A stretch of 64,000 nt of DNA from a virus (IMGVR_UViG_3300035180_001452:58381-122380); one strand, 5' to 3'. Shown: positions 25,743 through 34,198, counted from the first letter of the stretch. Notes: generated by a model from the sequence alone, not told the origin. Program-made: numbers and translations.

Positions 25743-25997
25743 TAATATATCCTTGTTTATTACACGGACTAGGTCTTACTAAACTCTACATTATTATGGC
25801 ACACTCAGATTATCTTGTATAGCAGGGTTTAGCATAAATACGGACATAGTTTATCAGGCCAGAAACCAATCCTGCCTCTAGGTACTATATTACCTAGATG
25901 ATCTAGGGGGTGTGTCTCAAATTTACCCACGGTAAGTTTGAGATGTGCCAGCGAGTGCTCTGGGGACATGAGCCCCTGCACTCAGAAAGGTAAGAGA

Positions 25998-26345
25998 ATG
26001 TCCAAGGTTAAGGAGTGGTTGGAGAAGCTTGCGGGGCTTTTGGCCCCAAAGGCGAGGATCGTGGAGAGCACGGCTACCGGTGACGATCAGACCGGCATCG
26101 TCACTGTCGCCCTTATCCAGGGCGATGCGCGCATCGAGATGGCGGTCAGCTATGACCGCCAGAATTTCCGGGTTGGCTTCTCCGTCAAGAAGGCGGAGGG
26201 CTACCCGGTCTCTTCTGGAAGCGTTACCTTCGAGAACAACTGGTACGAGGTTCATCTCGAGAATATTCTCGAGATGAAGTTCAAAAGTGCATCGATGATC
26301 CCGTGGGGGATCATCGGGGCTGAGATCGAGAAGGCTATCAGGTAG
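25998..26345 (+). CDS. Cassette protein, family A (115 aa)
   Basis: ATG after repeat-borne AGAAAGG SD; C-terminal IPWxxIxxEIxKAI shared with 26441 and 28949. Confidence 0.8.
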   Translation: MSKVKEWLEKLAGLLAPKARIVESTATGDDQTGIVTVALIQGDARIEMAVSYDRQNFRVGFSVKKAEGYPVSSGSVTFENNWYEVHLENILEMKFKSASMIPWGIIGAEIEKAIR

Positions 26346-26440
26346 CCTTCTCGATCACCAAGGAGGAGGGGCTAACGCCCCTCCTTCTTGGGCTGAGTGC
26401 TTAGGGGACATGAGCCCCTGCACTCGGAAAGGAAAAGGAA

Positions 26441-26806
26441 ATGGAGTTGAAGATTGAGAAGTTTCTGCGCCTGGTGACGGGGCTTCTCCTGCCCCCCGAC
26501 ACGGTCTGTGTCGAGGAGACCGTGCTCGGTACTGACGAGTCGGGCATCGTGGGGTACATGTTCCAGATTGGCGAGGTCAACCTGGACGTTGCACTCACGA
26601 ACAACCGGGACGAGTGGACGTTCACCCTTGATACTATCAAGGGAGGTCGGAAGATCCTGATGGTCACCGTCTTGTACCAGCACGCGTGGTACAGCATGTC
26701 TATCCGGGCCAAGGACGTGGAGACGACCCGGAAGTTCCGGGATGCCTCGAGCATTCCCTGGGACGAGGTCGGGAAGGAGATCGGCAAGGCCCTCTCTGAC
26801 ATCTAG
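26441..26806 (+). CDS. Cassette protein, family A (121 aa)
   Basis: GTDESGIV and RKFRDASSIPW shared with paralogues. Confidence 0.8.
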   Translation: MELKIEKFLRLVTGLLLPPDTVCVEETVLGTDESGIVGYMFQIGEVNLDVALTNNRDEWTFTLDTIKGGRKILMVTVLYQHAWYSMSIRAKDVETTRKFRDASSIPWDEVGKEIGKALSDI

Positions 26807-26899
26807 AGAGGGCCTGGGCCTAAGGAGGAGGGGCTAACGCCCCTCCTTCTTGGGCTGAGCCAGAAGAATGTACCTCTGGCTTGGGAGGAGGTGAATAAA

Positions 26900-27037
26900 A
26901 TGGTGGGCCTCGTTGTGGTGGTAGTAGTTGTGGCGGGCCTGGTTAAGCTCCTCGAGTCGGTTCGTGAGGAGCAAAACCGTGCCCTCACCTTCTCCTTTAT
27001 GGAGATCATGAAGGAGGAGAAGGAGGAGGAGAAGTAA
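26900..27037 (+). CDS. Small membrane peptide, family B (45 aa; not in the ORF track)
   Basis: SD GGAGGTG; MVGLVVVVVVVAGLVKLLESVREEQNRALTFSFMEIMKEEKEEEK. Confidence 0.75.
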   Translation: MVGLVVVVVVVAGLVKLLESVREEQNRALTFSFMEIMKEEKEEEK

Positions 27038-27134
27038 TTCTCCTCCTCCAGCCTAAGGAGGAGGGGCTAACGCCCCTCCTTCTTGGGCTGAGTGTTTAGA
27101 GGACATGAGCCTCTGCACTCAGAAAGGTAGGAAG

Positions 27135-27602
27135 ATGAAGCCTAGCAAGAAGATCCTTGCTGGGTTCCAGGTCCTCTTTGGATCTGGGATCCAGCAGGGG
27201 GTGACCCCAGAAGTTTGGGTCACTACCAGCAAGCGGACTTTTAAGATGGTCCGCTGTGACATCGGAACCCCCGTTGTGGGGGTCATCACCCGCAGCGGCT
27301 GGCAGGTTGCCGCTATCCAGTCCGAGGAGAAGTATGTCTGGCTCGCTCCTGGCGAGAGCGAGCCAAGGATCGGGTCTCTCGTCAAGCTCCTTCAGGAGTT
27401 CTTGAAGGATAAGGGTGATGGCGTGTTCGACATCATCCTTGCCTTCAAGAAGGAGGTCGAGGAGACCAAGGCTAGCAAGAAGGATGATGAGACCTTTATC
27501 GACCTGCTTTATAAGCAGGCCGAGATGGTCTCCTCAACCATCTCGAGCACGTACTCCAGCGTGGTGGAGTACGTTACCAACATCCCCAAGATTTTCTCGT
27601 AG
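27135..27602 (+). CDS. Cassette protein, family C (155 aa)
   Basis: Paralogue of 30566 (EEKYVWLAP; identical end EYVTNIPKIFS). Confidence 0.8.
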   Translation: MKPSKKILAGFQVLFGSGIQQGVTPEVWVTTSKRTFKMVRCDIGTPVVGVITRSGWQVAAIQSEEKYVWLAPGESEPRIGSLVKLLQEFLKDKGDGVFDIILAFKKEVEETKASKKDDETFIDLLYKQAEMVSSTISSTYSSVVEYVTNIPKIFS

Positions 27603-27684
27603 GGGATGTTGGTAGCCTGAGGAGGAGGGGCTAACGCCCCTCCTTCTTAGGCTGAGTGTTTAGAGGACACGAGCCTCTGCACTC

Positions 27685-27825
27685 AGAAAGGCAGTGCAAT
27701 GACTTGACTGCCTTGGATCGCTGATCGCTAGGCTAGTTAATGCTTTAGGGGCAGTATTAACTAGCTAGAGTGCAGCCTTGGTATTAAAGTGTGGCTGCAA
27801 TAGGGCTAACGCCCTTCCTTTTTAT
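27685..27825 (+). ncRNA. Structured ~140-nt module, copy 1, containing the SD + ATG-ACT-TGA minigene (27699..27707)
   Basis: Stems aaggcagt/actgcctt, ctagttaat/attaactag, tgcagcc/ggctgca and gggc-taac-gccc plus T-run; repeated five times. Confidence 0.55.
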
Positions 27826-32180: not shown

Positions 32181-32261
32181 AGAGGGCCTGAGCCTGAGGA
32201 GGAGGGGCTAACGCCCCTCCTTCTTGGGCTGAGTGTTTAGAGGACATGAGCCTCTGCACTC

Positions 32262-32402
32262 AAGGAGGCAGTGCAATGACTTGACTGCCTTGGATTGCTA
32301 GTTGTTAAGCTAGTTAATACTTTAGGGGCAGTATTAACTAGCTAGAATGCGGTTCTAGTGTTAAAGTGTGGCTGCAATAGGGCTAACGCCCTTCCTTTTT
32401 AT
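32262..32402 (+). ncRNA. Structured module copy 4 (minigene 32276..32284)
   Basis: AAGGAGG + ATGACTTGA; same stems. Confidence 0.55.
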
Positions 32403-32450
32403 ACTGAGCATTCTGGGGACATGAGCCCCTGTGCTTGAAAGGGGAGGCAT

Positions 32451-32843
32451 ATGACGCCTCGCGAGAAGTATCTTGCGGGATTCTGGGCGTTGTTTGAGCC
32501 CGTAATTCCCGCAGCCCTCCGGACGGTAGTCCGGAGGACCGTCCGGCTTAGTAAAAGCCGTCAAACGTTTGAGACTGCTCTCGTAGTAGTCTCAATCGAA
32601 GTCGGTGGGCGAACCCTTAGGATGGTTCGACAGCCGATCAAGGACTCCCAAACGGGAGTCCTTGCGAGCAGTGGCTGGAAGATCGCTTGGGTTTTCCAGC
32701 CAGATCCAGAGAATGGAACGTATGTTCCATTTCCCGAGGGCCGGTGCGTTTGGCTGGCCCCGGGATCCGACCAGCCCAAGATCGGGTTGGTCGGGGACCT
32801 TCTCCGGGAGGCGTACGGACTCCCGGAGAGGATCAACCGGTAG
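32451..32843 (+). CDS. Cassette protein, family C-related (130 aa)
   Basis: MTPREKYLAGF, GWKIA and VWLAPG..P.IG motifs. Confidence 0.75.
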   Translation: MTPREKYLAGFWALFEPVIPAALRTVVRRTVRLSKSRQTFETALVVVSIEVGGRTLRMVRQPIKDSQTGVLASSGWKIAWVFQPDPENGTYVPFPEGRCVWLAPGSDQPKIGLVGDLLREAYGLPERINR

Positions 32844-32967
32844 CTTTGTATAAGGAGGAGAAGGCTAGTATTTTCTCCTCCTTATACTACGACTGGTGAT
32901 TTTTTTACCGGGAGGTGTGTTCCGTCAGCTTATGCGTAAGTATAGGCTCGGATCACATCTCCCGGTA

Positions 32968-33112
32968 GAAAGGCAAAAGTAAAAATGACCTGACTACCTA
33001 TTGGTAGCTGGCGCTAGATTAGTTAATACTTTAGGGGTAGTATTAACTATCTAGTGTATAGCTCTAATATTAAGGTGTGGCTGCAATAGGGCTAACGCCC
33101 TTCCTTTTTATA
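32968..33112 (+). ncRNA. Structured module copy 5, most diverged (minigene ATG-ACC-TGA 32985..32993)
   Basis: tagttaatact/agtattaacta stem and gtggctgcaatagggctaacgcccttccttttt end retained. Confidence 0.5.
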
Positions 33113-33160
33113 TTGAGTGCTTAGAGGACATGAGCCTCTGCACTCAGAAAGGAGATGTAG

Positions 33161-33565
33161 ATGATTGCGGGTGTCTTGGTCGGGCTCATCGAGCAGCTGC
33201 TGCTCGGTGACTTCAGCATCTTAGGGCGGTATGTGCTTGGTAACCCTAAGATGCACGAGTGCTGTCACAAGACATTGGTTGTTGATGGTGCCGCTGTGTT
33301 GGTCACCGTTGCCGTGTCCGGTTTTGGTCACGGTATCGTGACCGTCTCCTCTAGCTCCTCTAGCGGTACCTATGGTGCTCGGTCTGTGGAGGTAGTGGGC
33401 ATCATGGGACTCCCGGATCATACCTGGGCCGTCAACGGGCATACCGTTGATGGTGGGAGGCTGATCTCAGTGGAGGAGGTCGTTGGAAAGGTTGGTGTTG
33501 GTGGAAGCTTCGCGTGGAAGGGCGTATGCAAGGAGGTGGTGGACCTCTACCTTAAGTTGAGGTAG
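33161..33565 (+). CDS. Cassette protein (134 aa, Val/Gly-rich)
   Basis: SD AAAGGAG after the repeat; stop codon inside a hairpin. Confidence 0.75.
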   Translation: MIAGVLVGLIEQLLLGDFSILGRYVLGNPKMHECCHKTLVVDGAAVLVTVAVSGFGHGIVTVSSSSSSGTYGARSVEVVGIMGLPDHTWAVNGHTVDGGRLISVEEVVGKVGVGGSFAWKGVCKEVVDLYLKLR

Positions 33566-34198
33566 AGGTCCAGCCTGAGGAGGAGGGGCTAATGCCCCTC
33601 CTTCTTGGGCTGTCTGAGGGCTAAAAGTTTGTTACTACTCTCTGACAAATGTCTACATGTTTAGGGGCTAACGCCCCTCTTTTTAGTGCTGGGGTATAGT
33701 ACTATACCCTAGGAGGATGTTACATGGTACGTCCAGATGGCATCCGATTCGGGGCCTTCGGCCCCTGTTGCTATGCCGGGCATACCATGACGGCAATCTT
33801 CTTTACTACAAAGACTACCGGTAGGGTGCAATCCTGCCTGTACTTTTAGTAATAGCCTATACTCAAGTAAACAGTACCGGGAAGTGTGCACACTCTCCGG
33901 TATATCAGTCATAGCTACGCTATGGTATCAGTAGCAGCTACACTAGAGCTTTAGCCGGTAGGTTTCAGTCGCAGCTAGGCTATGATCTTTTGGTGAAAGT
34001 GGCCACCATAGGGCAAAAAGTGCCACATTTTTGGGCCGAAAATGGACAAAAATGGGCCAAAACATGGATGGGTACTTTTGGGGCTATGGGAGCCACTTAT
34101 CCAATAGCCTATAGCTACTTTACCTGGGTAAACAATACTCACCCTGCGGTAAGGGTGTTTACATATAGTGCACAGTTGGTAGACTACCAGAGAGGAGG

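Follow-up and report, generated by a model that had tools for sequence, protein, structure and literature searches.

In phage genomes, genes for host takeover and anti-defence show their fastest turnover in the early regions, and to our knowledge promoter-early stem-loops (PeSLs) are the only described device for this turnover. In T4-type phages, PeSLs act as mobile cassettes of regulatory sequence within hyperplastic regions (Arbiol et al. 2010, PMC2839356; Comeau et al. 2014, PMC4122927). By definition, every PeSL motif contains a sigma-70 consensus promoter (-35, -10 and an AT-rich upstream region), and exchange between neighbouring motifs gives rise to small circles (PMC2839356, PMC4122927). 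A second described system is the early precursor of phage T7, about 7 kb long, which host RNase III cuts at five related hairpins into stable mono- and dicistronic messenger RNAs (mRNAs), one of them encoding the phage polymerase (PMC4858673); the early mRNA of SP82 is cut by the Bacillus enzyme (cited in PMC4838370). Here we describe an array of small genes separated by structured repeats in IMGVR_UViG_3300035180_001452:58381-122380, a 64,000-nt window that forms the last 64 kb of a 122,380-bp single-contig virus record (completeness estimate 79%). We find it rather probable that the repeats are RNA-level punctuation that processes, stabilises or insulates cistrons, and that the joints double as recombination homology in DNA.

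The array spans window positions 25953-33690 and contains 15 open reading frames (ORFs) of 45-155 amino acids (aa), each with its ATG 6-9 nt past a Shine-Dalgarno (SD)-like purine run. Its cassette unit consists of hairpin A, a leader hairpin (B or B'), the SD, a small ORF and a cassette-specific hairpin over the stop codon (Table 1). An initial annotation of the window had proposed this grammar of hairpins and small ORFs, and all the elements that it named are present, far beyond chance; the modular early-gene array that it drew from them is likewise supported. Exact-motif counts over the whole record give 14 copies of GGGGCTAACGCCCC (the 14-nt core of A), 19 of GGGCTAACGCCC (a looser 12-nt core), 15 of the B loop motif GGACAYGAGCC and three of B' on the + strand, against none of any of them on the - strand. 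All these matches lie between 25964 and 33665; the elements are intergenic, on the + strand and within one 7.7-kb stretch, and neither exact nor mismatch-tolerant scans of the whole record reveal a copy outside the array. Repeat finding gives matching families (18 copies of a 46-nt A unit, 15 of B, three of A plus B', and five of a unit of about 170 nt). About one third of the array (2531 of 7748 nt) is non-coding.

The same elements occur elsewhere. A 30-nt A pattern leads to four metagenome contigs (L010-L013) with two to six copies each, which together contain 17 A, 5 A2 (the variant of A described below), 15 B and 6 B', in the same orientation and near-identical to the window copies. The habitats of this array-bearing lineage are mat, sediment and hot-spring metagenomes. 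A search of species-representative genomes with a 22-nt A pattern gave 0 matches, and in a megablast comparison with a phage GenBank collection, from which the record itself may be missing, the stretches 25900-33700 and 10000-25000 of the window are without match.

Hairpin A folds with -36.2 kcal/mol (z -7.8) on the + strand; the - strand fold, with two mismatches, reaches -28.8 kcal/mol and is 7.4 kcal/mol less stable. The 20 copies of A counted previously are there, although not as a single kind: 14 are full 18-bp hairpins, five have a short stem and a T tract, and one is a terminal short stem with a T tract. The five, here termed A2, have lost the outer 5' arm, keep the UAAC loop on a 5-bp GGGC/GCCC-type stem (-7.9 kcal/mol) and have gained a T tract and a TATRYT box. 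A scan for intrinsic terminators flagged none of the 14 full copies, which have no U tract; the hairpins that it marked as terminator-like are those of the five A2 copies, the terminal one at 33663 and an extra one at 31070. Pairing of the 3' arm of A with the downstream SD was considered and rejected, as it extends over at most 6 bp against the 18 bp of the hairpin. Rfam gives no match at the gathering score in the whole window, and in E-value mode it returns sub-threshold microRNA-like hairpins and one small RNA (naRNA4) at 20-33.5 bits, against cut-offs of 45-90.

The leader hairpins stand directly before the SD. The end of B lies 1-2 nt before the SD-like AGAAAGG, while B' is followed by GGAGGTGA, a stronger SD, and in the window precedes 45-52-aa ORFs only (all three copies). 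Counted over the window and the relatives, the 7-nt loop of B is exact in 27 of 30 copies and conforms to ACAYGAG in 29. A translation start at the ATG in this loop was discarded, as this ATG is in frame with some cassettes and out of frame with others.

The third element, the stop hairpin, is formed by the last codons of an ORF and a complementary stretch 3' of its stop codon, and hence its sequence is specific to the cassette. It is present at z <= -2.9 in 13 of the 15 array ORFs and at z <= -4 in 11, compared with two and one, respectively, among the 42 other long ORFs of the window that were scored (one further ORF at the window edge is unscored). In the relatives, 11 of 17 ORF ends have a stop hairpin at z <= -2.8. 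Those without are c06, c14, their orthologues and a 90-aa ORF in L012, and there another hairpin, a 'P' hairpin (see below) or a 15-bp stem, lies directly 3'. At the junction, the stop hairpin, A and B (or B') fold into three abutting helices with zero unpaired bases between them (z -9.4 for a 151-nt example). The stop hairpins of a 77-aa cassette in L010, L012 and L013 differ in sequence and keep their pairing; an ACC-to-ACU change in the 5' arm, which is synonymous, has its counterpart in G-to-A in the 3' arm.

Alignments that include the relatives comprise 31 copies of A (21 distinct) and 30 of B (13 distinct), with 500 shuffles as the control. In B, 97.2% of the cells are paired and 3 of the 11 pairs are double-changed (U-A/C-G, G-C/A-U and G-C/A-U; 12 cells). 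No shuffle (0/500) matches the observed pairing, the double-change cell count or the covariation score, and sliding the partner reduces pairing to 18-55%. In the 18-bp stem of A, 96.8% of the cells are paired; ten pairs are invariant, six are changed on one side, always via G.U, and one is double-changed. The G.U pairs occupy 62 of 378 cells and equal C.A mismatches on the opposite strand, so that pairing counts and energies confirm the G.U-compatible mismatches on the + strand noticed earlier; the compensatory copy of A reported with them is present at 28864-28903 (AGAC/GTCT).

Mean pairwise identity is 93.6% among the 31 copies of A and 85.8% among the 30 of B. In comparison, ORF paralogues have 57-78% nucleotide identity with a synonymous divergence (dS) of 0.6-1.35, and dS ranges over 0.1-1.35 across the flanked ORFs compared. 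A and B are therefore better kept than the silent sites of the ORFs that they flank, which argues for selection, gene conversion between copies, or both. The initial annotation's proposal that the hairpins are under selection agrees with their + strand RNA compatibility and with the covariation of B, of hairpin 1 of the 156-nt units and of the 77-aa stop hairpins, with weak covariation in A. Taken together, the array elements behave as + strand RNA structures.

Compared with the described systems, the array works like a PeSL array without being a member. Both have a repeated intergenic stem-loop with G-T pairs, at whose 3' end stand the SD and start codon of a small ORFan, and both lie in a plastic early region of a myovirus, where the motifs mark the limits of indels and replacements, for which general recombination is proposed as the driving force. 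The per-motif sigma-70 promoters of PeSLs are not seen here per cassette. Further differences are the three abutting hairpins (one of them cassette-specific and over the stop codon), the two leader modules and the five 156-nt units, as well as a far higher copy-to-copy identity, a GC content at third codon positions (GC3) of 0.70 against 0.31-0.33, and a phage that is not T4-like. The array thus presents the same evolutionary behaviour as PeSLs in an unrelated phage with a different build, in which genes have no promoter each and one hairpin of the RNA triplet is specific to its gene. To call it no described element, as had been done, was too strong insofar as PeSL cassettes (PMC2839356, PMC4122927) and RNase III-punctuated T7 mRNAs (PMC4858673) are described counterparts; the lack of an Rfam match stands. 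What is notable is the promoter-less triple-hairpin joint, the stop hairpin that co-varies with coding sequence, and the codon split within one genome.

A sigma-70-type promoter scan (9/12) gives 7 sites in 9.5 kb against 5.6 +/- 2.1 expected, none of them recurring at junctions, and alignments of the B and B' junctions have no common hexamers at a fixed distance from the SD. The suggestion that the repeats are hairpin promoters is consequently not borne out: B and B' junctions have no promoter-like hexamers in common, and the wobble pairs lie on the non-template strand. These results also bear on a true PeSL type, with a promoter for a host sigma factor or a phage polymerase in each junction, A as terminator or attenuator and every cassette as its own transcription unit. 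We regard this as distinctly unlikely, even though it is the architecture of the closest known system, in which a reporter showed good termination by stem-loops that have no obvious U tract (PMC2839356). UUCUU follows the 8-bp GC stem that forms the inner part of A, and A2 and the terminal copy on the same core resemble ordinary terminators; the full A, however, pairs its own pyrimidine tract and is then followed by GAGUG. Apart from the lack of common hexamers and of a recurring 9/12 site, the presumed polymerase genes (37027-40480) lie downstream in the same GC3-rich early block and are unlikely to be needed for its transcription. Because the two junction types have no shared promoter-like sequence and terminator-like T-tract short stems stand only at the 156-nt units and the array end, cassette groups are probably co-transcribed.

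Each 156-nt unit is structured and non-coding apart from a two-codon ORF: an SD is followed by this ORF, which sits in the loop of hairpin 1, by two more hairpins and by A2 at the end. All ten copies (window, L011, L012 and L013) are identical in length, and the ORF always reads Met-Thr-stop, written ATG-ACT/ACC-TGA in the window, with one ATG-ACA-TGA copy apiece in L011 and L013. This two-codon ORF recalls the bar minigenes of phage lambda. Hairpin 1 changes from C-G to U-A in four of the ten copies, hairpin 3 keeps its pairing via U.G, and RNAalifold pairs the SD region with the A2 T tract. The units also contain TTAACT-N16-TAGTAT, an 8/12 sigma-70 match and thus below the scan threshold; a promoter with TTGACT within the Met-Thr minigene was rejected, its spacer to any TAnnnT being at least 19 nt. 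The units may be terminator-plus-promoter joints, in which case they would be what is closest to PeSLs here, or ribosome-dependent attenuators.

We therefore return to RNA-level punctuation and to how it would operate. The 156-nt elements would separate polycistronic units (c01-c04, c05-c09, c10-c11, c12-c13, c14 and c15), and within these units the triple hairpin would separate cistrons, with the long A as the intercistronic punctuation mark. The likeliest role of A is that of a target for a host double-strand-specific endonuclease (RNase III type), failing which it would at least insulate structurally. Once A is cut, the upstream message would keep its own stop hairpin as a 3' guard, and the downstream message, after trimming, would start with B or B' on the SD, as a 5' guard and a setter of translation level. 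Hairpins at message ends protect against 3' and 5' exonucleases. The 3' arm of the stop hairpin has about the length of the ribosome's downstream footprint, and a terminating ribosome would thus melt the stop hairpin and not A. In DNA, the A+B joints of about 75 nt would act as portable homology through which a RecA-like recombinase of the phage or a recombinase of the host adds, deletes, duplicates and replaces cassettes. If the RNA-level part is true, the array is a natural insulated and processed polycistron, comparable to the ribozyme and Csy4 designs of synthetic biology, and a source of very stable, compact parts.

Similarities to T7 and SP82 are the related hairpins between consecutive early genes on one strand and the early block that precedes presumed polymerase genes. 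In T7, the 3'-end hairpin left after the cut is thought to stabilise the upstream message. Each of the five T7 sites contains an internal loop and is cut once; the 14 predicted sites here are copies of A, a perfect 18-bp stem capped by a tetraloop. We note that RNase III sites have about two helical turns between cistrons and that the 18-bp stem and tetraloop of A are abutted by two more helices. RNase III itself is a possible, though less likely than not, enzyme for a cut in A.

Several points weigh against punctuation at the RNA level. The covariation of A is statistically weak, since 20-22 of 500 shuffles match the observed values and only one pair is double-changed, and gene conversion between copies could explain the conservation of A as much as selection. 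Single-stranded DNA hairpins tolerate G.T pairs, and strand asymmetry therefore does not fully exclude a role at the DNA level. A non-sigma-70 or phage-polymerase promoter could sit in every junction. A stem of 18 bp is among the shorter substrates of RNase III, and the record has no RNase III gene, so that a host enzyme must be assumed. Finally, the relatives are short contigs (1.3-3.1 kb). In Logan contigs, an assembly graph can create false joints at repeats; such joints are not used as evidence, which is confined to the loose ends that continue into unlike sequence.

The stop hairpins and the B loop also invite readings in which a dedicated factor is at work. It is conceivable, if on balance unlikely, that the array is a promoter-less RNA-punctuated cassette platform of undescribed kind, whose three-hairpin joint is read by a dedicated nuclease or RNA-binding factor. 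The stop hairpin co-evolving with the last codons, the constant A with its c(UAAC)g loop and the ACAUGAG leader would then form a self-contained joint, and the five 156-nt units would be ribosome-sensing gates between sub-operons. If true, any ORF placed between two joints would be released with a cap at either end for translation independent of its neighbours, and the joint would serve as a recombination handle. We hold it to be quite improbable that A is a mere insulator and that the ACAUGAG loop of B, with the AUG loops of B' and P, is bound by a sequence-specific RNA-binding protein or endoribonuclease of phage or host, which would control translation or cleave the transcript. The near-invariant B loop above a stem that changes by compensation, at a fixed distance from the SD, is what such an operator would look like, but B' fills the same slot with a different loop. 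Moreover, Cas6 was not found in the record, nor was RegB, in a search that detected no control genome and thus had no positive control, and the ten cassette proteins tested have no Pfam or PHROG family.

The relatives keep the grammar and differ in cassette content and order, with no fixed order among the four short contigs, as the proposed recombination points had implied. L010 represents the start of an array, with the shared leader followed by a member of family F1 (families are described below) that is 36% identical to c01 and by the 77-aa family, which is absent from the window. L012 runs from an unknown ORF through the 77-aa family, a c03-like and a c09-like cassette, c06 (93.5% aa), a new 90-aa ORF and a c08-like cassette to a 156-nt unit. 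L013 has the order c09-like, c06-like (56%), 77-aa family, a second c09-like copy, unit, c12-like, unit, c14-like; it is without c10, c11 and c13, and its 77-aa cassette sits behind B' instead of B.

Two pairs of contigs reveal breaks. Over about 890 nt (A, B, unit, c14-like, P, unit), L011 and L013 match at 100% identity; the match ends exactly at the start of an A hairpin, upstream of whose first bases the two contigs are unrelated and have different F4 members (36% identical). In the second pair, L012 and L013 share about 430 nt at 100% identity, and their divergence sets in 30-70 nt within the c06 ORF. Breaks found both at the constant junction and within a conserved ORF start point to general recombination on short homology and not to a site-specific enzyme. 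In contigs of four public DNA runs, repeats at 25994, 26807, 28378 and 32187-32189 lead into up to 255 nt of unlike sequence, which suggests that the communities hold more cassettes beside the same joints.

The same data bear on mobile cassettes acting at the DNA level, with stop hairpins or A as attC- or REP-like sites in single-stranded DNA that a site-specific enzyme would move, or B as an N4-type DNA hairpin promoter, which we judge very improbable. As with attC sites, each cassette has its own hairpin, conserved in shape and specific in sequence, beside a constant element, and one recombination break falls exactly at the border between stop hairpin and A; another break, however, lies inside an ORF where homology continues, as general recombination predicts. 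Conserved core sites and extrahelical bases are absent from the stop hairpins, which form perfect stems and are unrelated in sequence. No tyrosine recombinase matches in the 122-kb record, which is about 79% complete (control genomes, 14/14), and neither a serine recombinase nor a Y1 (HUH) transposase was found in it. N4 promoters fold in the template strand, while the wobble pairs here favour the non-template strand. Neither the excision of cassette circles considered in the initial annotation nor site-specific mobility is supported by an enzyme in the record.

Integrons share with the array promoterless small ORFs in one orientation, each with its own inverted repeat of kept shape and variable sequence, and a content that varies between relatives. 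Unlike integrons, the array has a constant 75-nt junction and one break inside an ORF, with no IntI-type integrase found and no R/L core boxes or extrahelical bases. REP/BIME palindromes with RAYT and the start-associated sequences of cluster K mycobacteriophages are, as here, many near-identical structured repeats after stops or before starts. They differ in that the repeats here form one array in one orientation and a fixed gene register, with no Y1 transposase found.

Table 1. Features of the array and its borders (window positions; c01 to c15 are the cassette ORFs in order).
Feature	Position	Strand	Remarks
Leader	25835-25952	+	conserved, non-coding, 5' of the first B; divergent region between - strand structural genes and array; near-identical to the matching L010 stretch
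Hairpin A, 14 full copies	26355-33611	+	each 40 nt, 18-bp stem, UAAC loop; starts 26355, 26817, 27050, 27614, 28299, 28864, 29279, 29529, 29780, 30480, 31030, 31710, 32191, 33572
Leader hairpin B, 15 copies	25953-33145	+	31 nt; 6-bp lower stem, internal loop, 4-5-bp upper stem, loop ACAYGAG; starts 25953, 26395, 27090, 27654, 27829, 28339, 28904, 29820, 29995, 30520, 31284, 31750, 32231, 32406, 33115
Leader hairpin B', 3 copies	26858-26881, 29320-29343, 29570-29593	+	24 nt, then strong SD
Stop-enclosing hairpins, 13	26324-33576	+	12-18 pairs; approximately 26324-26356, 26783-26820, 27022-27049, 27573-27616, 28271-28300, 29250-29278, 29504-29533, 29752-29779, 30450-30482, 30989-31032, 31671-31714, 32161-32189, 33534-33576
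156-nt structured non-coding unit, 5 copies	27676-27831, 29842-29997, 31131-31286, 32253-32408, 32962-33117	+	
Extra terminator-like hairpin	31070-31091	+	9-bp stem and T-rich tail, past A behind c11
Terminal copy of A core	33663-33688	+	short stem, then CTTTTTAG; terminator-like array end
P hairpins, 4	28815-28842, 31107-31134, 32906-32967, 33875-33902	+	TACCGGGA...TCCCGGTA; within or at end of array
c01	25998-26345	+	115 aa, family F1
c02	26441-26806	+	121 aa, family F1
c03	26900-27037	+	45 aa, family F5, hydrophobic N-terminus, behind B'
c04	27135-27602	+	155 aa, family F2
c05	27876-28286	+	136 aa, family F3
c06	28384-28803	+	139 aa, single in window; orthologues in L012 (93.5% aa) and L013 (56%)
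c07	28949-29269	+	106 aa, family F1
c08	29362-29520	+	52 aa, family F5, behind B'
c09	29612-29767	+	51 aa, behind B'
c10	30042-30467	+	141 aa, family F3
c11	30566-31018	+	150 aa, family F2
c12	31331-31699	+	122 aa, family F4 (F1 superfamily)
c13	31797-32180	+	127 aa, family F4
c14	32451-32843	+	130 aa, N-terminal part F2-related
c15	33161-33565	+	134 aa, single copy

The cassette proteins fall into families F1 (c01, c02, c07), F2 (c04, c11, c14), F3 (c05, c10), F4 (c12, c13) and F5 (c03, c08), with three singles. F1 and F4 form one superfamily (hhalign probability 94.5%, E 8e-8) that accounts for 5 of the 15 cassettes. In eight of nine orthologue or paralogue pairs, the ratio of nonsynonymous to synonymous divergence (dN/dS) is 0.11-0.42, and it is 0.71 in the ninth, the most diverged pair; the cassette ORFs are therefore genuine genes that evolve under purifying selection. 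Their position, size and turnover would fit host-takeover or counter-defence genes of other phages.

Pfam and PHROGs give no family for the ten cassette proteins scanned (one per family plus c01); the remaining five, c07, c08, c10, c11 and c13, are paralogues. The predicted model of F1/F4 (predicted local distance difference test, pLDDT, 87.2) has a helix, a seven-stranded antiparallel sheet and a helix, and has no Foldseek match at E <= 0.001 in PDB or BFVD. A bilin-reductase-like assignment was rejected, the best VIA-align Z of 9.0 being near the background of 7-8, and no function is drawn from it. The predicted model of F2 is poor (pLDDT 50). An F1/F4 profile matches 7 proteins among 5.8 billion, every one from this lineage, and the c11 protein has three matches outside the record. 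An IMG/VR protein search with c04 and the neighbouring gene 25116-25742(-) returned no relatives, and the F2 alignment has no match in species-representative genomes.

The P hairpins extend beyond the array, with a fifth at 34412-34441, and their loops are rich in AUG and GUG. Non-coding P hairpins are confined to the early region, the remaining matches to the P motif in the genome lying inside ORFs. Two occupy the slot of B before a 156-nt unit, and in L012 one P encloses a stop codon. Past the array, window positions 33700-34200 comprise about 500 nt without a convincing ORF, with hairpins and a repeated CAGT.GCAGCTA..CTA-like motif.

The - strand structural genes that fill window positions 1-25742 include tail sheath, portal and an intein-bearing large terminase, and gene direction switches to the + strand from about 25950. 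The leader between the two blocks is a candidate site of the first early promoter; it has no 9/12 sigma-70-type site on the + strand. Past the array, + strand genes encode a helicase and a ribonucleotide reductase, both intein-bearing, and a RecA-like gene lies at about 55906-56574. Intein-type Hint domains split the large terminase at 17433-19958(-), the SNF2/DEAD-type helicase at 52095-54644(+) and the ribonucleotide reductase at 58000-61476(+).

The phage is uncultured and myovirus-like. Among the portal proteins of the phage collection, those of Moorella phage MTATph1, of Bacillus phage 0305phi8-36 and its kin, and of an Acinetobacter phage match best, at 29-37% identity (about 36% for the nearest two), and a Halorubrum virus portal matches at 21%. 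With portal identities of 29-37% at best, the phage is therefore not T4-like and is without a close cultured relative.

The array lies in a GC island at 25.9-40.5 kb of the window, with 52-55% GC compared with 36-44% elsewhere. The difference sits in third codon positions: the 15 array ORFs have a GC3 of 0.70 and five ORFs at 34.8-40.5 kb one of 0.61, compared with 0.33 (+ strand) and 0.31 (- strand) for the other ORFs. This sharp codon split within a single genome (GC3 0.70 against 0.31-0.33) is a further testable question. The island contains two large ORFs (37027-38595 and 38537-40480) that are negative in Pfam and PHROG and have no PDB sequence match at E <= 1. The first contains RHQGDCDGDRIG, in which a GDCDGD motif is seen, and the pair is presumed to be a phage polymerase, as a candidate only.

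Searches of IMG/VR returned further loci that were rejected as copies of these elements. L009, a match to the B pattern, is a chance match inside a GC-rich ORF. L001-L008, single-copy matches to a 20-nt A core, are unrelated viral contigs with one GGAGGGGC/GCCCCTCC hairpin each, and in the two loci checked the strand is opposite to the long ORFs. In these two, L001 and L005, the GGAGGGGC/GCCCCTCC hairpin is intercistronic and just 5' of an SD, and in the mRNA it would have GUUA as its loop; the flanks of the other six loci are near-identical. Judged from these loci, a GC hairpin of a purine run and a pyrimidine run 5' of the SD may be more widespread among phages of such samples.

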